From: Flaccisagitta enflata
Lineage: Eukaryota
Reading direction: 5' to 3'
Length of the DNA stretch: 64,000 nt
NCBI GenBank assembly: GCA_965153355.1
Contig: OZ231126.1
Location: forward strand, 16,120,001 to 16,184,000
The stretch's first letter is position 1, and each line of letters opens with the position of its first letter. The notes beneath the pieces are model-generated. The model saw nothing but the letters and a program-made list of their open reading frames with translations. It was not told where the DNA came from and did not search any database. A program made the translations under genes and the position numbers. Shown in pieces: positions 2,143-38,825 of the stretch.

Positions 2143-14093
<11,951 letters not shown>

Positions 14094-17149: not shown

Positions 17150-19535
17150 GCGCGGCTGGGTCTGAGAGGCCTGATTCGATGCTGGGGGGAGCGAGGAACG
17201 GAAACTGGAGAAGATTGTCATATATGGAAGTTTAGCGGCTCTTCGCTGCCCCCCCCCCTAAAGAATTAAAAACAAAGAGAACAAAACAAAAATCATCTCG
17301 CTGTTCAAAATTCATTCCAATTCTCAAAATAGTCGCTTGATTGTCTCGATTAAATAGTCGCTTAATTGTTCGATCAAATAGTCGCTTAATTGTCTCGATA
17401 AACACTTGACCTGTTGACTTAGTTCCATTGTTCCATGGATTGAATTGTTGCAAAGAAAGCGAGTTATTTGTCCAGGTGTGCTACTTTGTTGCTGCTAACT
17501 TTCCATCCATAGAAACAAGGCCAAGTAGGTCAAAAGGTGCGACATGTGGATCATCTAATGAATGCGCGACCGACCAACCGACCAACTGACCAACCAACCG
17601 ACCGACCGACCGACCAACCGACTGACCGACCGACCGACCGACCGACCGACCGACCAACCAACCGGCCGACCGACCGACCGACCAACCGACGGAAACAGCC
17701 AGTTAAAGAGGTGCTTTCTCGCACCTAGACATAGAAGCTCTTGAATTACGTAGGTGACTTCTGTGTTAATGTCATTTTAATTATATTTTAAAATTATTTT
17801 GTTTCTATTCTTAGTTTGATAACTAAATTGCAAAATAACTAAATTAACTAGACTAACTGGACTAACTAGACTAACTAGACTAACTAGACTAACTGAATTG
17901 CAAATCATGTCACGTATATTGGCAATCAACAAATTCAATTGGCAACATAGATTACAAAAAAATTGCACGACATGAGTCGGCTACATACGACAGAAGGTTG
18001 TCCTATGCTGACAGCGTCAATGGCAACAAGGTCATTAGACCAACAACATGTGCGTCGGCACTTATAGAAGAAAATCTGACAGACAGACAGACAGACAGAC
18101 AAACTATTTCATCTTCAAAACGACATTTGAACTACGTGGCTGTTTATTCCTGAAAGTTTCTTTTCTAATGTTCAGAATAATAAAAAAACGCAATGAAAAT
18201 CTTTACACCAACTTTGTGACGGACGGACGAATTGACGGACAGACCGAAAAGTGGCTTATAGAGTCGCGTACCACGCGACTAAAAATTGAAGTTGACCATT
18301 ACATAACCAATTGTATGTGTAATGAAAAATGTATGCTTGAACAGTCTACTAATGAAAGAGTCCATGAAATGAGATGGATTAAAAGAATTGCCGGCACAAA
18401 ATCGAAAATGTATCGATCAAATAGACTAATTAAACGGCCGAAAGTGTACAGTATTGAATCGCTTTACTGCAACAGAGATGGTTGCTAGTGAATTGAATCA
18501 ATCTTGTCTATCCCTGTTTTTTGATAACTGAAACTTCCTTTGGTGCTTCGTATCTTATCTTAGAAATTTAGGATTCATATTCTTTTTTTGTTTGACTTGG
18601 AAATTAAAAAGTCGCAATTTTCAAAATCAAGCCTTTTCTCATGAGCTCACTGTTTCAGTTCAAAAACATTGCTTGCCGAGCAGCACAGATTTGTTGAATT
18701 TTAAGAGGTACTGTACGATGGAGCTCGTGTCCCTCGCCCGCGCGCTTTCTTCATTACTACATAAATACTTTCAGGTTCTCATTGACAAGTATTAGTTGAA
18801 AAAAAGATGGAGGCATTTCTAGAAAAATATTTCGAAATATTTCAAGCCTCTAGCAAAGATGAAACAGGAATTCAGAGCTCTATCGTAGTTGGGGTAAGTT
18901 GTTGTAAGGGATGTTAAAGGCGTTTTTTTTACCAATTAGGTTAATTTTTAACAGTTTACTTGTTTCCCTAAAATTGTCATCATGTATGAAATTTTCATGA
19001 ATCTTAGGCGCATTGTAAAAACTGTAACACTCGGGTGTGTCAATATGCTAAAGGTCTTAAGAGCAAATCATAATTTTCAGGGAGTATGTGGACACCAATT
19101 ATCGGGAAAAAAGGCGAAGTCAGTCTTCGACTTTTTTACATATTCCAGAGAAACATGGTTTTCATTTTCTTATTTGGAAGTTTTGAATCTCCATTGACTG
19201 ATTGGGGCGTCCTATGAAATTGATAGAGTAACTAAATTTGATAATTCTATTTCATTTGGCGCCAAGCAGAATGCTCTACCACAAATATTTTTCAAGTTAT
19301 GATTTTTCAAAGATTTAATTTTGAAAAATTCAAATCAATCTTTTTTTTTCTTATTTCTTTTATGATTTTAAGTAGGATCAATAAAAGAGTGTATCTACAG
19401 GGTCATTGATCTCAAATGACAAAAAGTATCAAGCTTTTACTTCAATATGTATTATCATGCAGCTCTGGAAATTATTTTCCTTTAAGTACTATGTTTTACG
19501 TTATTTGTAATAAAATTTTATTGGTCTGGGTTGAA

Positions 19536-19998
19536 CCAGAGGAGGAAGGAGGCTGATAATGTGTAAAGAGCTCTTTTAGGGTATGACTTTTTTCTTTGGA
19601 ACGAATTCTACCACTTAGTTTTGATTTTTGATCTTTTTATGGTCAGAAAAAGTCACTATCAAGAAATTCTTCGATCAATTTGTAATCTTTGATTACTAAC
19701 GCAACCTGATTTTTGTGTGTCATAGTGCAGTTGAGAATGAAGTGAAACATAGATGAGTTATCCTCTGCTATGTTTTGTTAAAAACAAAAAAATGTTTCCT
19801 CAACCTCTTCTGTTACGATTTCTATAGCAATCTGTTTTAAATAATTTTTTTATATTACTAAAATTAATTTTAGCTATCTTCCTAGGCCGTAAGAATTGAT
19901 TTGACAGCAGATTCTTCTTAGTTTGACATGAATTTGTGTGAAACAAGAAAAAAAATAATTCTTACGGCATGTTAGGTACCCTGCCGGCCCCCCCTGGG
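19536..19998. mobile_element. Insertion with ccag...ctgg termini and 7-8 bp TSD (g)ggttgaa, hAT-like
   Basis: Absent from arm 2 (single ttcaaccc at ~42623-42630). Confidence 0.55.
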
Positions 19999-20319
19999 GT
20001 TGAATAGTTTAGCCACAACATCAATTTGAAGTAAATTAAACATTAGAAAACAAGGTTTTTTTCTAAAGTAATTATTTGGTAAATAAGTTTTATATTTATA
20101 TAGTTTGAGCTAAAGATGCCAAATTAGTGTTAAGAGAAGGGGCAATATGAATATCTTCTTTTTTTTTCCAATTTCAAGCTTATCTGATACTTGTCAGTTA
20201 ATTGGTTAAAAGACAACTGCAATCTAAACAATAGTTATTGTAAAAATATGGTAAATTGGGCTTACGCTGTGAATATTTTTTCTTCTTCAAATTGATGTTG
20301 TAGCCAAATTTTTCAGGAA

Positions 20320-20790
20320 ACAAGTCATCCAAGGATCGCACATGGTCAGCGGTACCCGATGCCCTGCTTGGAGTGATTAGCTGAAAAAGTGGAGTGAAGC
20401 AGGGCAGCGGCCCCAAATGGCCGATGTCCTGTAGGACACAGGGGTGAATTTCCATACGTCCTGAGAGGGCATATTTGGGGTAATTTTCCATAATATTCAT
20501 TGGGAATTTTGAATTATTCTCAATTTTTTATCAATTTGCCATGTTATTCAATGGGAATTTGAGGCCTGAGAGGCTGGATTTAGGGCCCAAGAGGCTGGAT
20601 TTAAGGCCTGAGAGGCTGGATTTGAGGCCCAAAAGGCTGGATTTGAGGCCTGAGAGGCTGGATTTGAGGCCTGAGAGGCCAGATTTGAGGCCTGAGAGGC
20701 TACGAGGGGGTACGTACGGACGGAAGGACATACATAATTTTTAGCCCCTGTGTCCTACAGGACATTGGCCCTTTTGGGCCGCTGCCAAAA
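20320..20790. mobile_element. Non-autonomous Helentron-type (HINE/DINE-1-like) element, family B
   Basis: ~42-bp subterminal inverted repeats (gcagcggcccc..ggccgatgtcctgtaggacacagggg) around 21-bp tandem repeats, with conserved end gggtaccgctgacc. Relatives at 1-500, 27003-27410, 41835-42305, 45751-46150. Superfamily assignment is by structural analogy. Confidence 0.6.
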
Positions 20791-21212
20791 AAAAGTTTCA
20801 AATCTGTCAGATTATATATCTTAAGGTAAAAGCACATTACTTTTTGCCATTTGAGATAAATGATCCTGTATGTTTGTTTGAGCATGCAAATACAAAAAAA
20901 CATATTCATCAGCATAGCTACTCATCTGTGAGGGTGTTTTTCAGTATTCCAGCTCAGTTAGCTCAGTCTTTTTTTATTTTGAATGCGATAAATGTATAAA
21001 TGTTTAGATACATGTTTGAGCAAGCAAATACAAGAAAGCATGTCAGAAAGTGTAGTTGGTCATCTGTGTGAGTGATTTTGAGTATTTTAGCTCATCTAGC
21101 TCATTAGGCTCAGGCCTATTTTTCTCTGACTTTCAGTGCAATCAATACGTACTCTTAATTTTATCTAACATGGTAAGCATGGAATGGATGTTTGGGGGTT
21201 AGTTTTGCTAAA

Positions 21213-21274
21213 TGGAAAACTAGGAGTGATGCGCGTAGTAACTAGTCAGTGAGGGCTCACAAGGCCCTCTTCCA
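21213..21274 (+). ncRNA. Twister ribozyme, type P5 (copy 1)
   Basis: P5 UGGAA/UUCCA, P2 CUAG/CUAG, GA-GUG, short P1, UAA cleavage motif, P4 GAGGG/CCCUC, T1 UC/GG, T2 CAC/GUG. This copy has an A.G mismatch in P1. Confidence 0.6.
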
Positions 21275-21515
21275 TATTTTTCAGTTTGGGTATAGTGAGG
21301 GATGTTGTTCCACCTATCATACTACTCAGTACCTTGGATAAGAATGTCCGGCGGTCGCATTAAGCTTGACCTCGATTCTATCCTTCAAGGGTATGGTTTC
21401 TTGACAATGTTAACCTCGGGTGATTTGTTGAATTTTGTTAATAAAGGTAACAGTCATTGGCCCTTATCTATTTTGGTAAGCATGGAATGGATGTTTGGGG
21501 GTTAGTTTTGCTAAA

Positions 21516-21577
21516 TGGAAAACTAGGAGTGATGCGCGTATTAACTAGTCAGTGAGGGCTCACAAGGCCCTCTTCCA
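21516..21577 (+). ncRNA. Twister ribozyme, type P5 (copy 2)
   Basis: All twister stems and both pseudoknots can form; predicted cleavage U21542/A21543. Confidence 0.68.
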
Positions 21578-21818
21578 TATTTTTCAGTTTGGGTATAGTG
21601 AGGGATATTGTTCCACCTATCATACTACTCAGTACCTTGGATAAGAATGTCCGGCGGTCGCATTAAGCTTGACCTCGATTCTATCCTTCAAGGGTATGGT
21701 TTCTTGACAATGTTACCCTCGGGTGATTTGTTGAATTTTGTTAATAAAGGTAACAGTCATTGGCCCTTATCTATTTTGGTAAGCATGGAATGGATGTTTG
21801 GGGGTTAGTTTTGCTAAA

Positions 21819-21880
21819 TGGAAAACTAGGAGTGATGCGCGTAGTAACTAGTCAGTGAGGGCTCACAAGGCCCTCTTCCA
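21819..21880 (+). ncRNA. Twister ribozyme, type P5 (copy 3)
   Basis: Same sequence as copy 1. Confidence 0.6.
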
Positions 21881-22563
21881 TATTTTTCAGTTTGGGTATA
21901 GTGAGGGATGTTGTTCCACCTATATACATAAGATTTCAGTGATGGAAGACAAAAACTTGGTGGAGAGTGGCCAATGCTTACGACTTTGTTCCTCACGGCG
22001 ATAGCTGCCAGTACTGGTAAAAAAATTACCGTTTTTTTTTTTCAAATTTCATTCATTTTTTGTCACTTTGATATCCTCATTCAGCCCCTAATTTGTACAT
22101 AGTAATCGCGCTCAAAAATGTATTGCCACATAAAGCGTTTGTTTGCTATTCAGCGCAAAGCTCTTGATGGGCAAAAAAGAAAAAAAAAGAAAAAACAAAG
22201 GACCATGATATATGGAAGTACTCATAAGACGAAGCCGGCTTGTAACAGACAAAGATTGAGAGACTACTCCCGTCGCGTGCGGGTGGGCAGGGGTAGTGTT
22301 TTTGGGCAGTTGCATTGAGGTTAAAGGCCCCATCAACGGCAAAAAAAGTATTAAGGTGACCAACGGACGGACGGATGGATGGATGGATGGATGGATATAT
22401 GGATGGATGGATGGATGGATGGATGGATGGATGGATGGATGGATGGATGGATGGATGGATGGATGGATGGATGGATGGATGGATGGACGGACAAAGAGGG
22501 TTGTAGCGTCCCGTGCACGCGACTTGAAAAATTACATATGGCTATCTCCTTGGGTTCCAGGTT

Positions 22564-23894
22564 ATGTTAGATGCCTTACGGGCCATCAATGATGAGGTTT
22601 ATAAATTTAAAAAGAGGTAGAAATGGTATTTTCGGGTATATTTCGGATCGTTTTCCTAATTCGCAACTTTAGTCGCTGTGGCGTGAACTCAACGTGCCCA
22701 ATACACGAGAATGACGAGATTATATATACCCATTTCGGCTCCTAAAAAATGCAATTAGCAATATTCATCTCCAGCTGGTTATACACAACGAAAACTTTTT
22801 TTTAGGGCATAGAAATAATCAATCGCTGCGAACGAAGAGACAGAAAGGATCAATCTGTACTTTTGAAAATCTTCGCGCCTTCATTTTGCCTTCATGTGAT
22901 TATCGCGTGCGTCCTACTGCCTCTTCTGTTGAAAAATCTACGCGGGCATTCAAAGGGCTTACTCATATTTCAGTAAGTGGCGATTGTCTTTTACCTTTTT
23001 TTCACATTCGTAGAATCTCTGATAGACCTCGGCCTTTCATTCGATTCCGGAAACTCTCAGCCCGTAGAGATTCTCCAAAATTTGAGCCATTTCGACGAAT
23101 CCAACACGACCGAGACTGATCAATGGCCATTCCTAAATCTTTCGAAATTTGTCAATTCCCTGGGCAATGGGGTTTCTTACGTGACGCATGAAGTGGAAAG
23201 CAAACCGATTCCGGCGAAATTGTCATATTTCTGGGATACTTTAAGGAATATGTTCTATTACCAACACAACATGCTTATGATTCTTCAAAGCCTTCATTAT
23301 CGAGCCTTGATTTGCGATTCGTTGAATTTCGAAGAATACAGGAGACACGTCTTTAAGAGACTCGTTCTCGTTTTAACATGTTCCTTCATTTTTTCCTCGC
23401 CTCATTCATTATTCTTAGTTATGGAATTTAGCCAAATCGGTAGCAATACGAGTCCTTTCACATTTGTGAAACGGTCCTTCAAACAAATTTTGTACGTGTA
23501 CGATATGACGGGAATGGCTATTACCAAGGCGGCTACCGCTGTCATCCTGATATTCGTCGCCTTTTCTGTAAAAAAGGCGCTAAATCAATCGAATGAGGTT
23601 CGTGATCGGCCATCTCGAGGCTGTTTGTCGCCTCCGTTATTCATCGTCGTCTGTCTCATCCCGCTTGGCATCCATTTTTTCCATCTTCTCGGGGATGTCC
23701 CCAGATTTATTTTGTACCTCGTTCATTACTTGGTATGGAATGGGAAGCTAAACGGTTGTCTGGATCACAATAGCTATTTCAGCGTCAACATATTTTTGCC
23801 GCTTAATTTCTTCGCATATTGTATCGGATCTTTGGTACAATGTTCGGCGTACTTGATCTATTTTCCCAATCTCCGCAAAGTAAAATGCTTTTAA
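22564..23894 (+). pseudogene. Paralogue of the 7TM receptor with an in-frame nonsense codon
   Basis: join(22564..22596, 22806..23894); near-identical to the 39.5-40.8 kb copy, but CAA>TAA at 22974-22976 in TM2. Confidence 0.65.
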
Positions 23895-23927
23895 CATGAC
23901 TCTTGAAACGAGGCTATTACTAGTATA

Positions 23928-24181
23928 CAGTCAGTGGACAAAACACAATAGGTAGAGAGCTCACACTGTTGGCTTCTACCCAATATATTATCAATGAGCA
24001 CTATATTGTATACTTCGACTGGTTGTTAAAACTACACCCGGCTGTAATATTACAAGATTGTAGAATTACAGCCGGCTGTAATTCTAACAATTAATTGTTG
24101 CATACAACATGTTGTTTGTTTTTAATATGTTGGACCAAAATCAACAGTGTGAGTTAACTATTTTGTTTTGTCCACTGACTG
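23928..24181. mobile_element. Palindromic MITE (TIR CAGTCAGTGGACAAAAC); mirrored at 39226-39479
   Basis: Long imperfect inverted repeats, TA on the left flank; lies just 3' of the 7TM stop codon. Confidence 0.75.
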
Positions 24182-24563
24182 CATAGTCTCATATTCTCAC
24201 ATTTTCACTGATTGGTTAACGCCCAATGGCTAATTAGTAATTACCCCACCCCATTATAAAACAAAGACTTTCTCTTTTTCTCATTATTTGTTTATTGTAA
24301 TTCAAACTCTGTTTCTTTTCTCTCTCAATTTCTCATTTCTTCTGTAATTCAAATTTTCTCGAACCAATGCCCAAATTCATGGCGTTTTGTTTTTATCCAC
24401 CCATTTTAATTTCAGCTCCTCAAATTTAGACCCCCCCATACCATTTCTCGTATCTCATTTCTTTATTTTGATCGATTTCGTAGACCCATTAGTGCTCAAG
24501 AGCGATGAAGAAAGAAAGAGAGAAAGAAAGAAATAAAGAAAGATAGAAAGAAAGACAGAGTTA

Positions 24564-24647
<84 letters not shown>

Positions 24648-24676
24648 AATATAGATAGAAAGAAAAGAAAGAAGAA

Positions 24677-24732
<56 letters not shown>

Positions 24733-24733
24733 A

Positions 24734-24774
<41 letters not shown>

Positions 24775-24783
24775 AAAGAAAAA

Positions 24784-24839
<56 letters not shown>

Positions 24840-24883
24840 AGGAAAGAAAGAAAGAAAGAAAGAAAGAAAAAGAAAGAAAAGAA

Positions 24884-24919
<36 letters not shown>

Positions 24920-24936
24920 AGAAAGAAAGAAAGAAA

Positions 24937-24984
<48 letters not shown>

Positions 24985-28827: not shown

Positions 28828-28837
28828 NNNNNNNNNN
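28828..28837. other. Assembly gap (10 N)
   Basis: Run of n characters. Confidence 1.
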
Positions 28838-31800
28838 TGGTATATCCGGATCTCGCTATGTGATGGTGATTTTGGGGGCTGGGTCAGTTGTAAAAAGCTC
28901 TGAGGTGGTGATAAAGTGTGTATTTGGGGGCATTTCTTGTATTTTTAGGTTAAACTTTCCTCTGGTATATCCGAATCTCGCTATGTGATGGTGATTTTGG
29001 GGGTTGGGTCGTTGTAGGGGTGCCCGAGGTGGTGATAAAGGGGGTATTTGGGGTGATTTTGTATTTTTTAGGTTAAACTTTCCTCTGGTGTGTCCCAATC
29101 TCGCTATGTGATGGTGATTTTGGGGGCTGGGTCATTGTAGGGGTGCCCGAGGTGGTGATGGGGGGGGTATTTGGGGTGATTTTGTATTTTTAGGTTAAAC
29201 TTTCTAGGTATATCCGACCTCATTATGTGATGCAGGATTTTGGGGGCTGGGCTGTTGTAGGTGCCCGAGGTGGTGATAAAGGGGGTATTTGGGGGTGTTT
29301 GTATTTTTAGGTTAAACTTTCCTCTGGTATATCCGAATCTCGCTATGTGATGGTGATTTTGGGGGTTGGGTCGTTGTAGGGGTGCCCGAGGTGGTGATAA
29401 AGGGGGTATTTGGGGTGATTTTGTATTTTTTAGGTTAAACTTTCCTCTGGTATATCCGAATCTCGCTATGTGATGGTGATTTTGGGGGTTGGGTCGTTGT
29501 AGGGGTGCCCGAGGTGGTGATAAAGGGGTATTTGGGGTGATTTTGTATTTTTAGGTTAAACTTTCCCTCTGGTGCATATCCTAATCTCATGTGATGGTGA
29601 TTTTGGGCTGGGTCGTTGTAGGCAAGTGCCCAGGTGTGATAAAGGGGGTATTTGGGGTGATTTTGTATTTTTAGGTTAAACTTTCTTCTGGTATATCCGA
29701 ATCTCGCTATGTGATGGTGATTTTGGGGGTTGGGTCGTTGTAGGGGTGCCCGAGGTGGTGATAAAGGGGGTATTTGGGGTGATTTTGTATTTTTAGGCAA
29801 CTTCTTTCCTCTGGTATATCCGAATCTCGCTATGTGATGGTGATTTTGGGGTTGTCACATAAGGGTGCCCGAGGTGGTGATAAAGGGGGTATTTGAAGAT
29901 TTTTGTATTTTTTTAGTTAAACTCCTTCCTCTGGTATATCCAAATCTCGCTATGTGATGGTGATTTTGGGGGTTGGGTCGTTGTAGAGGTGCCCGAGGTG
30001 GTGATAAAGGGGGTATTTGGGGTGATTTTGTATTTTAGGGGTTAAACTTCTCCGGTATATATCCGAATCTCGCTATGATGGTGATTTTGGGGGTCAAGTG
30101 TAGGGTGCCCGAGGGTGGTGATAAAGGGGTATTTGGGGTGATTTTATATTTTTAGTTAAACTTTCCTCTGGTATATCCGAATCTCGCTATGTATGATTTT
30201 GGGGTCGTTGTAGGGGTGCCCGAGGTGGTGATAAAGTGGGGGTATTTGGGGCATTTTTATATTTTTTAGGTTAAACTTTCCTCTGGTATATCCGACCTCA
30301 CAGGATGGTGATTTGGGGTTGGGTCGTTGTAGGTGCCCGAGGTGGTGATAAAGGGGGTATTTGGGGTGATTTTGTATTTTTAGGTTAAACTTTCCTCTGG
30401 TATATCCGAATCTCAAGCAGGTGATGGTGATTTGGGGGTTGGTTCTTGTAGGTGTCTTAGGTAGGATAAAGGGTATTTGGGGTGATTTGTATTTTTAGGT
30501 TAATCTTCTGGCATATCCGAATCTCGCTGGCGGCATGGTGATTTGGGGGTTTGGTCGTTGTAGGGGTGCCCGAGGTGGTGATAAAGGGGTATTTGGGGTG
30601 ATTTTGTATTTTTTAGGTTAAACTTTCCTCTGGTATATCCGAATCCTGCCATGTGATGGTGGATTGGGGGTTGTCGTTGTGAAGTTTTAGAGGTGGTGAT
30701 AAAGGGGTATTTGTGGGTGATTTTTTGTATTTTTTAGGCGAACTTTCCTCTGGTATATCCGCTAATCGGCTATGTGATGGTGATTTTGGGGGTTGGGTCG
30801 TTGTAGGGGTGCCCGAGGTGGTGATAAAGGGGGTATTTGGGGTGATTTTGTATTTTTTAGGTTAAACTTTCCTCTGGTATATCCGAATCTCGCGGATGTG
30901 ATGGTGATTTGGGGGGTTGGGTCGGTGTAGGGGTGCCCGAGGTGGTGATAAAGGGGGTATTTGGGGTGATTTTGTATTTTTTAGGTTAAACTTTCCTCTG
31001 GTATATCCGAATCTCGCTATGTGATGGTGATTTTGGGGGTTGGGTCGTTGTAGGGGTGCCCGAGGTGGTGATAAAGGGGGTATTTGGGGTGATTTTGTAT
31101 TTTTTAGGTTAAACTTTCCTCTGGTATATCCGAATCTCGCTATGTGATGGTGATTTTGGGGGTTGGGTCGTTGTAGGGGTGCCCGAGGTGGTGATAAAGG
31201 GGGTATTTGGGGTGATTTTGTATTTTTTAGGTTAAACTTTCTCTGGTATATCCGAATCTCGTTTATGTGATGGTGATTTTGGGGGTTGGGTCGTTGTAAG
31301 AAAGTCTTGTAGGATAGAAGGGGGTATCAGTGTTTTTGCATTTTTAGGTTAAACTTTCCTCTGGTATATCCGAATCTATTTATGATGATTTTGGGGTTGG
31401 GTCATAGTAGGGGTGCCCGAGGTGGTGATAAAGGGGTATTTGGGGTGATTTTGCATTTTTAGGTTAAACTTTCCTCTGGTATATCCAAATCTCGCTATGT
31501 GATGGTGATTTTGGGGTTGGGCCGCTGTTGGGGGGTCCTAGGTGGTGATTAAGGGTATTTGGGGGTGATTTTGCATTAAATAAACTTTCTCCGGTATATC
31601 CGAATCTCGCTATGTGATGGTGTTTTTGGGGGTTGGTCGTTGTAGGGGTGCCTGTAGGTGATAAAGGGCATTAGGTGATTTGTATTTTTAGGGTTAAACT
31701 TTCCTCTGGTATATCCGAATCTCGCCATGTGATGGTGATTTGGGGGTTGGGTCGTTGTAGGGTGCCTGAGGTGGTGATATAAAGGGCATTTGGGGTGATT

Positions 31801-33995
31801 TTATATTTTTTAGGTTAAACTTTCCTCTGGTATATCCGAATCTCGCTATGTGATGGTGATTTTGGGGGTTGGGTCGTTGTAGGGGTGCCCGAGGTGGTGA
31901 TAAAGGGGGTATTTGGGGTGATTTTGTATTTTTTAGGTTAAACTTTCCTCTGGTATATCCGAATCTCGCTATGTGATGGTGATTTTCGAAGTTGGGTCGT
32001 TGTAGGGGTGCCAGGTGTGATAAAGGGGGTATTTGGGGTGATTTGTATTTTTTAGGGGTTTAAACTTTCCTCTGGTATATATCCAAACCTCGCTATGTGA
32101 TGGTGATTTTGGGGGTTGGGGTCACAGGGGTGCCTTTTCCCGAGGTGGTGATAAGGGTATTTGGGGTGATTTTGTATTTTAGGTTAAACTTTCCTCCAGT
32201 ATATCCGAATCTCGCTATGTGATGGTGATTTTGGGGGGGGGTTAGTCGTTGTAGGGGTGCCCAGGTGGTGATAAAGGGGTATTTAAAGTGATTGGTGCTC
32301 TTTTTAGGTTAAACTTTCCTCTGGTATATCCGAATCTCGCTATGTGATGGTGATTTTGGGGGTTGGGTCGTTGTAGGGGTGCCCGAGGTAGTGATGCAGG
32401 GGGTATTTGGGGTGATTTTTGTATTTTTTAGGTTAAACTTTCCTCTAGATCGTATATCCCGAATCTCGCTATGATGCAGGATTTTAAAGTTGGGCTGTTA
32501 GGGGTGCCCAGAGGTGACAAGGGGTATTTGGGCATTTCTTGTATTTTTTAGGTTAAACTTTCCTCTGGTATATCCAAATCTCGCTATGTGATGGTGATTT
32601 TGGGGTCAGCAGGGGTGCCCGAGGTGATAAAGGGGGTATTTGGGGATTTTATTTTAGGTTAACTTTCCTCTGGTATATCCGATCTCGCTATGTGATGGTG
32701 ATTTGGGGGTTATCGTTGTAGGTGCCCGAGGGTGGTGATAAGGGTGGGTATTGGGGTGATTTTGTATTTTAGGTTAAACTTTCCTCTTTGTATATATCCG
32801 CATCTCGCTATGTATGGTGATTTTGGGGTTGGGTCGTTGTAGGGGTGCCCGAGGTGGTGATAAAGGGGGTATTTGGGGCGATTTTGTATTTTCTAGGTTA
32901 GCTTTCTCTGGTATATCCGAATCTCGTTATGTGATGGTGGATTAAAGGGTCGTTGTAGGGGTGCCTGAGGTGGTGATAAAGGGGGTATTTGGGGCGATTT
33001 TGTATTTTCTGTGGTTAAACTTTCTCTGGCATATCCGAACTCGCCATGATGGTGACGAAGGTCGTTGTAGGGGTGCCCGAGGTGGTGGATAGGGGGGTAT
33101 TTGGGGCGATTTTGTATTTTCTAGGTTAAACTTTCCTCTGGTATATCCCAATCTGGCTACATGATGGTGATTTTGGGGGCCAGGTCGTTGTAGGGTGCCC
33201 GAGGTGGTGATAAAGGGGTATTTGGGGCGATTTTTGTATTCTTCTAGGTTGAACTTTCCTCTGGTATATCCGAATCTCGCTATGTGATGGTGATTTTGGG
33301 GGTTGGGTCGTTGTAGGGGTGCCCGAGGTGGTGATAAAGGGGGTATTTGGGGCGATTTTGTATTTTTTAGGTTAAACTTTCCTGGTATATCTGAATTCAT
33401 GTGATGGGTGATTTTGGGGGCTGGGTCGTTGTAGGGGTGCCCTGGAGGTGGTGATAAAGGTATTTGAAGATTGTATTTTTTGTAGGTTAAACTTTCCTCT
33501 GGTATATCCGAATCTCGCGATGTGATGGTGATTTTGGGGTTGTCGTTGTAGGGGTGCCTATGGTGATAAAGGGGTATTTGGGCATTTTGTATTTTTAGGT
33601 TAAACTTTCCTCTGGTATATCCGAATCCGCTATGTGATGGTGATTTTGAGTTGGGTCGTTGTAGGGTGCCAGGTGCAGTGATAAAGGGGGTATTTGAAGA
33701 TTTTGTATTTTAGGTTAAACTTTCCTCTGGTATATCCGAATCACGATGTGATGGTGATTTTGGGGTTGGGTCGTTGTAGGGGTGCCCGAGGTGGTGATAA
33801 AGGGGGTATATGGGGCGATTTTGTATTTTTTAGGTTAAACTTTCCTCTGGTATATCCGAATCTCGCTATGTGATGGTGATTTTGGGGGTTGGGTCGTTGT
33901 AGGGGTGCCCGAGGTGGTGATAAAGGGGGTATTTGGGGCGATTTTGTATTTTTTAGGTTAAACTTTCCTCTGGTATATCCGAATCTCGCTATGTG
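28838..33995. repeat. 123-bp satellite, ~42 copies, G/T-rich on + strand
   Basis: Period 123 (e.g. 30999 to 31122); consensus tggtatatccgaatctcgctatgtgatggtgattttgggggttggg...aaactttcctc; abuts the N gap; many indel-type errors. Confidence 0.95.
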
Positions 33996-34870
33996 GGGCA
34001 CGTCCTAGCAATCGAAGAAGGGCCCTTACGATCCGTGAGTTATTCAACAGGCTACAGCCGACTAAGACCGGCTGACCAACCAACTGACCGACCGACCGAC
34101 CCACGTTCTGAAAGGCCGCTTTTAGCGTATCCTACATCACTACCCCTGCACCTTCTACAGATTGCTATCATTTTGCGAAGTAGAACATCTAAGGAAAAAA
34201 ATAAAAAAGCCTCTCCAGAAAGTGATAGTCTGCTCTTTATCGATTATTTTTAGAACAAGATTCTAGATTTGGGATGATATGTTGATGACAAAATTGCAAG
34301 GGGTAGTATTGAGAAGAGGGACTGTTGTGAGACACATATAGGTTAAATGATAAGAGACAACACAGGGCAGAATGGGCAAAATAAGTTATTTAAGTAAAAT
34401 GTGATTTTTTTATATTGAAATTTTGTTGGTGATTTACCCTCAATATGAGTGAGATATAATAAAGGGGGCTAAAAATGAGGTCCATTTTACTCTACGATCA
34501 ACTGTTTACATGTTATAAGCAAAAAAAAAAGAAAAGAAAAAACAATTTCAGCTATCAACTTTTTCACTGTATTGAATGAATTTAAAAACTATCACTTTGA
34601 AGAGCCTCCCTGAGAGGGCCATCCTATTTCGTCAGTCTGGAGAGGGTGCCTGCCCTCCGACATGAGACTAGGGCTGCCGTGTATCCGGTCTTATTCCTGT
34701 AACGATGCATTAATGGCAATACCAGACTCAAATCTTTTCCACTTTTTTTTTCTCGCTTTCATTGGATGTTTGGTTCTTATCGATTTCATATGCTTGGCTC
34801 AACGCCGACTTGTGTTTAATCGCAATCAGCGAACCTAATCTATGTAGGTCTAATCCACCAAGAAAAAAAT

Positions 34871-37985: not shown

Positions 37986-38456
37986 GACTAGCGCAGTGAT
38001 AAAAGTATGCAAACAGAGTCGGCTTGATTAGATATAAGAGTTGGCAAATATAAACGAAAAGATATTAAAAATGGGATACATGATAACTGATAAGGAAAAT
38101 TACAAATTACGGGGTGGAGGGGGAAGACAAGGAATGTGTAACCTAACCATCGCTGATATGTTTTGAAAAAAAGATACGGATTCGATATTGGGATATGGAG
38201 GGAAGTGAGGAGGCTAGAAGATACGGAGCTTGTTAATTGCACGATTGGCCCATGAGGAAAACAATCGCCCAAAAAATCAACAACGATGGCGAGAAAAGCG
38301 ATTTGAGGGCAATTCTAGTAAAAAAAATTCGAATGCGCAACAAAGAATCACTTTTAGACTCTTTACGCGAGAGAGAAAGAGAACGAGAGAAAAACCGATT
38401 TCAAACAAAAATCGCCGCAAATAAAACATTCGAACAAAAGCGTTCCTTTCTTTTTG

Positions 38457-38539
<83 letters not shown>

Positions 38540-38574
38540 TAAATCTTTCTTTCTTTAAATCTTTCTTTCTTTAA

Positions 38575-38639
<65 letters not shown>

Positions 38640-38651
38640 TTTTTTCTTTTT

Positions 38652-38723
<72 letters not shown>

Positions 38724-38727
38724 TTTT

Positions 38728-38825
<98 letters not shown>

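Follow-up and report, generated by a model that had tools for sequence, protein, structure and literature searches.

A 64,000-nucleotide (nt) stretch of Flaccisagitta enflata DNA (GenBank assembly GCA_965153355.1, contig OZ231126.1, positions 16,120,001 to 16,184,000 of the forward strand; called the window, with coordinates counted from its first letter) contains a tandem array of 303-base-pair (bp) units, in which a small module resembling a type-P5 twister ribozyme is found three times. The array is best explained as one recent insertion of a very abundant, non-coding mobile repeat of about 300 nt, which exists as single units or short tandems. The unit consists of a variable body, a 64-nt module closed by helix P5, and a conserved 46-nt tail that marks the 3' end of the insertions. 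The module may be an active, non-canonical type-P5 twister in a retrozyme-like element, for which a rough probability of 0.45 is given. The wider proposal is held yet more tentatively: a genome-encoded retrozyme family with very many copies, using a type-P5 twister with altered T2 and enlarged L4, belonging to an abundant marine organism, producing small circular RNAs (circRNAs) and invisible to current covariance models.

A young insertion of a tandem 303-bp unit

The array and its empty counterpart are as follows.

21172-21923, forward strand: inserted array, 752 bp or 2.48 units of 303 bp, defined by sequence reading, the tandem-repeat program TRF and comparison of the inverted arms
41445-41460, reverse strand: empty target site in the other inverted arm, ctaacat joined to atacataag, junction 41454/41453

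TRF reported a period of 303, 2.5 copies and 98% matches at 21171-21927, and the guanine-cytosine (GC) content of the unit is 41.6%. Over 146 nt, sequence reading shows no difference between units 1 and 3. Unit 2 differs from both at 21541 and 21607, which are two polymorphisms of the family, and from unit 1 also at 21716. The first-pass annotation had described about 2.5 near-identical units with three motif copies, and both TRF and the sequence bear this out.

The array lies in one of two large inverted arms (17249-24954 and 38453-44937), which are 96-99% alike and have an N gap between them. The flanks of the array match the other arm with 98.6% identity over 774 nt on one side and at 534 of 540 positions on the other, and the array itself is missing there. 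An AT dinucleotide stands on either side of the array, which leaves the insertion boundary ambiguous by 2 bp, and by comparison with the empty site the target duplication is AT (2 bp) at most. Because a 10-N scaffold gap (28828-28837) separates the arms, they may be haplotigs rather than paralogues; inverted joining of two haplotigs could have given this structure, and so could a true palindrome. If the arms are haplotypes, the array would be a presence/absence polymorphism and not a difference between paralogues. The insertion is young whichever way the arms are read. The earlier claim of a recent insertion missing from a paralogous arm thus stands as to the clean empty site, and less so as to the arm being paralogous.

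A second, separate insertion was found elsewhere in the window.

4248-4592, forward strand: separate insertion, 1.08 units of a 318-nt subfamily
21483-21514, forward strand: hypervariable stretch just upstream of P5, unalignable between the window subfamilies, with loose contig ends before 21501 and 21515

The insertion at 4248-4592 begins and ends with a 27-nt direct repeat (4248-4274 and 4566-4592), and is flanked by a candidate 10-bp target duplication at 4238-4247 and 4593-4602 (ACAAATTCAT and ACAAATACAA, 8 of 10 positions matching). The 303-nt and 318-nt subfamilies are about 90% alike apart from the stretch just upstream of P5. This stretch, 21483-21514 in one and 4425-4484 in the other, could not be aligned. 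Both insertions finish at nearly the same position of the unit (CCACCTAT and CCACTTTTCAT) while their start points differ, and neither 5' end (21172 and 4248) lies at a predicted cut site.

A module with twister-like anatomy in the unit

The following copies of the module were found.

21213-21274, forward strand: twister-like module copy 1, predicted cut between 21239 and 21240, A.G mismatch in P1
21516-21577, forward strand: twister-like module copy 2, predicted cut between U21542 and A21543
21819-21880, forward strand: twister-like module copy 3, predicted cut between 21845 and 21846, identical to copy 1
4485-4546, forward strand: twister-like module copy 4, predicted cut between 4511 and 4512, P1 GUG/UAU, extra L4 base U

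Copy 4, in the solo insertion, had been overlooked, so that the three copies counted earlier are those of the array only. The anatomy was compared with the twister consensus in PMC5408937 (a review by Gebetsberger and Micura), PMC5113685 and PMC8501958, which are papers later than Roth 2014. In copy 2, P5 is formed by UGGAA and UUCCA (21516-20/21573-77), and adding A21515-U21578 gives 6 bp and a 64-base module. After an AA spacer follows P2, which has 4 bp (CUAG/CUAG, 21523-26/21545-48), then GA at 21527-28 and GUG at 21529-31, which pairs with CAC at 21561-63. P1 is AUG-CGCG-UAU, and U-AA with the predicted cut after U lies at 21542-44. UC at 21549-50 faces GG at 21566-67, the linker is AGU, P4 is GAGGG/CCCUC (21554-58/21568-72), and L4 reads C-U-CAC-AA-GG. 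The helices previously listed for this copy all read as claimed. The pairings of the two pseudoknots also read as described, with the labels reversed relative to the literature, in which GUG/CAC is T1 and UC/GG is T2.

The order of elements (P5, AA, P2, GA, T1 strand, P1 hairpin, U-AA, P2, L2, linker, P4, L4, P4, P5) is that of the type-P5 permutation, whose existence, as the annotation had stated, is documented in the literature. The consensus has any base, then the cut, then A and A in L1 beside a 4-bp P2, which is lengthened by a sheared A.G pair, and U21542, A21543 and A21544 are compatible with this in sequence. By position, G21527 would lie opposite A21544, and G21527 and A21528 correspond to G45, the proposed general base, and A46. 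In the consensus, T1 consists of three pairs between the L1 strand after GA and L4, together with an A-A pair. The GA-GUG strand pairs with the CAC-A of L4, so that a 3-bp T1 is present, with the middle C-G replaced by A-U on both sides; in the rice mutational scan, T1 pairs could mostly be exchanged for another pair with activity kept (PMC5113685). Of the fixed L4 form G-U-NNN-AA-NN-C, which includes a U.A pair, the closing pair G21558-C21568, U21560, A21564 and A21565 are present, but with one base added. P1 has 3 bp in copies 2 and 4 and only 2 bp in copies 1 and 3, because G replaces U at its last position; P1 is reportedly dispensable for twister activity (PMC5113685). P3 is missing from the module. 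When the four copies are aligned, which gives three distinct rows, all but one of the 66 pair cells hold standard pairs. The module agrees in order and in most conserved letters with the published anatomy, for which the double pseudoknot, UAA and GA had been named as the consensus.

A literature-based descriptor was used for estimating chance matches. It allowed G-U pairs and 0-1 extra L4 base, left the lengths of P1 and the linker open, and did not require P5. Within the window it matched only the four module copies, and in 20 Mb of first-order Markov sequence of window composition it matched five times. The chance expectation is about 0.25 per Mb per strand, about 0.03 per window and about 1.5e-4 per monomer, with the 5-6 bp of P5 uncounted. 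The seven published Schistosoma twisters fit the descriptor in type-P1 order by inspection, and a window scan in that order gave no match. A covariance model built from the module scored the four known copies at 96-100 bits, and the next best match in the window at 10.6 bits.

The repeat family in public contigs

The unit was found in DNA runs of one organism, in marine and seawater metagenomes, and in part in eight RNA runs from four studies. Matching contigs numbered 16171 and 4600 in two DNA runs (X1 and X2), and 21 and 40 in two RNA runs (X11 and X17). All four sets consist of assembled contigs, in which the ends and the strand of a molecule are invisible and a circle is indistinguishable from a tandem; contig depth was not taken as copy number or expression level. 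Tandem joints going back 296-303 nt were present in 26 X1 contigs among those listed. Together with the empty site, this abundant and often tandem family supports the earlier reading of the unit as a mobile tandem monomer.

The family has a preferred 3' end, which follows a conserved tail.

21578-21623, forward strand: conserved tail at the 3' side of the unit; copies of the family stop at 21616-21625; includes AGTGAGGGAT, which nearly repeats the 5' strand of P4

Among the contigs listed, 3' loose ends stood behind 21616, 21623, 21624 and 21625 in 150, 121, 272 and 155 X1 contigs, respectively, and behind 21624 and 21625 in 91 and 73 X2 contigs, which makes at least 698 X1 and 164 X2 contigs with loose ends at 21616-21625. 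The flanks beyond are A/T-rich and agree only to 0.35-0.43, so that a defined 3' terminus is followed by unrelated DNA. At the loose ends before 21501 and 21515 the agreement is 0.59-0.76, and these are therefore taken as subfamily differences and not as element ends. Target-primed reverse transcription, which may be the mechanism of insertion, is expected to leave such a constant 3' end together with 5' ends that vary.

It is distinctly improbable that the family spreads at the DNA level, by satellite extrachromosomal circles or segmental copies that reinsert through microhomology, with neither an RNA step nor a role for the module. The short AT duplication at the array would suit such a route, and so would the heterogeneous multimer, as from copying an existing array, in a family that is often tandem. 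The preferred 3' terminus, however, is unexpected from random breakage of circles, and the possible 10-bp target duplication of the solo copy also argues against it. The family is found in oligo-dT and poly(A) RNA libraries as well, which is weak evidence in the same direction.

The module itself has sharp boundaries. Similarity starts at 21515 in 154 X1, 45 X2, 2 X11 and 2 X17 contigs, and at 21516 in one X11 contig. It stops at 21577/21578 in 5 of the 16 RNA pieces listed (records 10, 11, 12 and 14 of X11 and record 20 of X17), and records 10, 11, 14 and 20 continue into unlike sequence beyond. In one X1 contig, 21577 is joined to 21516 across 21 unrelated bases. Because these limits coincide exactly with the ends of P5, the unit closed by P5 behaves as a portable module.

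Common module variants were defined as those reaching at least 5% in either DNA run. They are 21532 A>G (40%) and 21541 T>G (49%), which affect the outer P1 pair, 21559 C>T at the extra L4 base (41% of X1 depth), and 21570 C>T (7.6%), which changes a G-C pair of P4 into G.U. None of the listed variants falls in GA, UAA, T1, T2, or the U or AA of L4. That all four common variants stand at tolerable positions has a probability of about 0.01 by a rough estimate; such uniformity could also come from recent amplification of a few source copies. The variant 21546 T>A, which breaks P2, makes up 0.5% of the DNA depth in X1. In two RNA runs it reached 8.9% and 7.6%, from two contigs per run, possibly by enrichment of uncut variants.

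Several further searches concerned the surroundings and the distribution of the family. The Pfam scan of the 10 long open reading frames (ORFs) of the window gave neither reverse transcriptase nor endonuclease, so that a partner element is not visible in the window. The unit was searched for a tRNA-like head, and none was found. Scanning metagenomes with the tail pattern gave no further copies, and two scans of viral contigs gave no match to the family. A metagenome scan with a gapped core pattern returned 23 loci, in none of which P4 and L4 followed the match by reading, and these loci were attributed to chance. RNA contig ends at 21524, 21527 and 21544 were considered as traces of cleavage and rejected; their positions reflect branch points of the graph close to variable sites and not a single cut site.

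Departures from the twister consensus

A number of observations weigh against an active twister in a retrozyme-like element, and they are collected in this and the following section. The conserved GC of L2 reads UC here, so that T2 departs from its published form and retains U.G and C-G. In the rice ribozyme, the L2 G is one of four positions at which any single substitution reduced the relative activity below 0.2 (Kobori 2016, PMC5113685). The partner of this G is altered too, which leaves the U.G wobble; rescue by pair exchange is stated in that text for C14-G30 and not for the other T2 pair. A21522-U21549 could lengthen P2 to 5 bp, as the minimum-energy fold predicts, and this pair competes for U21549. 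The extension is potentially damaging because it is analogous to the rice mutant A40C, which is thought to extend P2 by one pair and has a relative activity of 0.09 (PMC5113685). L4 carries one extra base, C21559, between G and U, in line with the caveat given at first that this loop is one nucleotide longer than in the rice twister.

The structure z-score of the module is weak (-1.68). The predicted 303-nt circle has a minimum free energy of -78.0, compared with a mean of -74.8 for shuffled sequences (z = -0.63), and 53 of 200 shuffled sequences folded just as well, so that high self-pairing was not found. One alternative pairing concerns the tail: AGTGAGGGAT at 21598-21607 copies the 5' strand of P4 (AGTGAGGGCT, 21551-21560) at 9 of 10 positions, and could pair with CCCUC instead, giving an alternative fold that turns the module off.

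The model searches point in the same direction. Rfam at gathering score gave no match in the entire window. The first-pass annotation had proposed the Rfam twister models as a check and had listed a miss among the outcomes speaking against the ribozyme; at E<=10, twister gave no match on 901 nt or on 79 nt, in searches run without a positive control. The miss could be explained by the departures from the consensus combined with the scoring of pseudoknot columns as fixed letters. Hammerhead at E<=10 gave no match on either strand of the 901 nt. In the permissive Rfam scans of 901 nt and 79 nt, Ocean-VII matched the P4 hairpin at 11.3 bits; this was regarded as noise and not as the identity of the module. 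The descriptor was composed after the motif had been seen, so the true odds are less extreme than the estimate given above, perhaps by one or two orders of magnitude. Covariation in P2, P4, T1 and T2, another check proposed with the original claim, was not seen: among the three distinct window sequences no pair was changed on both sides. Finally, presence in RNA libraries does not prove transcription, since DNA carry-over or copies within host transcripts could also account for it.

These observations could also be read as signs of a SINE-like (short interspersed nuclear element) or satellite repeat, whose 3' core is a three-helix structure for another use, for example recognition by a partner reverse transcriptase, with the likeness to twister being a coincidence or a decayed relic. 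This is considered somewhat unlikely. Such a repeat would account for the missing Rfam match, the lost L2 G, the extra L4 base and the extendable P2, as well as for an array copied from an uncut multimer and for the lack of covariation. Conservation moreover spans all of 21515-21625 and not the module alone, and retrocopies truncated at the 5' end give high cover of the 3' part anyway. A descriptor match by chance, however, is expected at only about 1.5e-4 per monomer even before P5 is counted, and the two catalytic positions are in place, as are U and AA in L4. In addition, the module recurs in other contexts with boundaries at the ends of P5, and the common variants avoid its core. The idea of a twister-based retrozyme family is thus strengthened by the anatomy, the abundance and the tandem habit, and weakened by the Rfam searches, the L2 G and the pairing of the circle.

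A possible life cycle and the template of the array

If the module is a non-canonical type-P5 twister, with T1 formed by CAC/GUG, a weak T2 (U.G and C-G) and one extra L4 base, G21527 and A21543 would be its catalytic pair. Transcripts that span two or more units would be cut between U and A once per unit. The products would be unit-length RNAs, or dimers if cutting is incomplete, with 5'-OH and 2',3'-cyclic phosphate ends, and a cellular ligase might close the unit-length RNAs into circles. The reverse transcriptase of a partner retrotransposon would then begin at the tail and proceed upstream past the length of a single unit. Such copying would account for the fixed 3' end, the variable 5' ends and the lengths of 1.08 and 2.48 units.

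The array restricts which of these RNAs could have served as its template, and not in favour of the cycle proposed. Since units 1 and 3 are the same and unit 2 differs, the template must have contained two units or more, which excludes a monomeric circle. An uncut multimer would serve, and so would a dimeric circle; at least two uncut or religated sites were kept in it. Furthermore, the 3' ends of the insertions lie about 80 nt downstream of the predicted cut, and a linear monomer released by cleavage therefore cannot have been copied. Both observations count against the earlier idea that released 303-nt monomers are circularised and retrotransposed.

An active twister might instead have a linear role in RNA processing, trimming read-through or multimeric transcripts of non-long-terminal-repeat (non-LTR) elements like the Perere-3 twister variants or the HDV-like (hepatitis delta virus-like) ribozymes of R2. 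There is published precedent for twister variants in non-LTR retrotransposition, and truncated twisters have been reported at the 5' ends of RTE elements; the pattern of insertion ends, constant at 3' and variable at 5', and the weak self-pairing of the predicted circle are in keeping with such a role. It is nevertheless judged improbable. In a single-unit transcript, a cut about 80 nt upstream of the 3' end of the insertion would split the body from the tail, and the 5' ends of the window insertions, 21172 and 4248, do not coincide with the cut site. A type-P5 cut also splits the ribozyme, unlike that of the type-P1 variants located at a 5' terminus.

Relation to known ribozyme-bearing elements

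In metazoan non-LTR retrozymes, type I hammerheads are carried by repeats of about 300 bp arranged in tandem (Cervera and de la Pena 2020, PMC7229834). The repeat described here is like them in unit size (about 300 bp, range 150-450 bp), in forming dimers to multimers, in GC below 45%, in being non-coding, dispersed and multi-copy, in having one small structured module per unit, and in its presence in RNA libraries. The module, in contrast, is twister-like instead of a type I hammerhead, and no hammerhead was found on either strand. Metazoan retrozymes also give a highly self-paired circular RNA, whereas the circle predicted here has z = -0.63.

Compared with type-P5 twisters (PMC5408937; PMC5113685), the module shares the order of elements, U-AA, the 4-bp P2, GA, the 3-bp T1, the U and AA of L4, the closing G-C of P4 and the P5 termini. 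It differs by UC in L2, a T2 of U.G and C-G, a longer L4, the lack of P3, a P1 of 2-3 bp, and in going undetected by Rfam. The seven Schistosoma twister sequences (Liu 2021, PMC8501958) have L1 UAA, L2 GC, L4 GUCCCAAGC, L2 GUAAA and L1 GAGGG.

In Schistosoma mansoni, twister T-variants process the 5' end of Perere-3, an RTE element (PMC8501958). There, as in the present case, a twister-type ribozyme that departs from the strict consensus is carried by an abundant non-LTR mobile element. The Perere-3 variants, which belong to type P1, occupy the 5' end of an autonomous element and cleave at its boundary, whereas the candidate is of type P5 and is separated by about 80 nt from the 3' end of its unit, a non-coding sequence of 300 nt that occurs in tandem. 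Truncated twisters at the 5' ends of RTE elements are mentioned in the literature as unpublished work.

Viroid-like circRNAs with a single twister are common in metatranscriptomes, from which 930 asymmetric clusters have been described (Lee et al., bioRxiv 10.1101/2022.07.19.500677). They resemble the candidate as small RNAs with a single twister in environmental RNA data. They were found as RNA through matches to known ribozymes and are mostly twister-P1, with no genomic copy shown, whereas the candidate has many eukaryotic genomic copies and was overlooked by known-ribozyme models.

In the sources consulted, genomic retrozymes in print use hammerheads only (PMC7229834), and hammerhead work is still what a 2026 paper cites when it describes the retrozymes of plants and animals. 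Literature searches combining twister with retrozyme, with tandem repeats or circRNA, and with retrotransposon or SINE gave no twister-based genomic retrozyme; supplementary lists lay outside these searches. For twisters of eukaryotic genomes, one role has been demonstrated, the 5' processing of an RTE element (PMC8501958). If the module is active, a second ribozyme class would drive a self-cleaving tandem-repeat life cycle, possibly with circles, and single-twister circRNAs of metatranscriptomes would be linked to genomic sources. It would also provide a natural test of how much departure from the consensus is tolerated in the T2 pseudoknot and in L4. If the family produces circles as well, twister-based mobile circles would be under-counted in animal or protist genomes. 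If it is inactive, the repeat shows how closely a ribozyme consensus can be mimicked.

Other features of the window

Between the inverted arms, 28830-34040 is taken up by a satellite with a unit of about 123 bp, repeated dozens of times, which begins right after the N gap. Tandem repeats of 21 bp, with the related unit ATTTGAGGCCTGAGAGGCTGG and its complement, lie at 20557-20701, 30-400 and 41914-42081, and one of them is the arm partner of another. A perfect (100%) inverted repeat of 496 nt (56205-56700 and 56735-57230, with a 34-nt spacer) may be a foldback element or an assembly artefact. It adjoins a 486-amino-acid ORF at 54744-56204 on the reverse strand, which has weak Pfam matches to helicase/NTPase families (ResIII, 27.5 bits).

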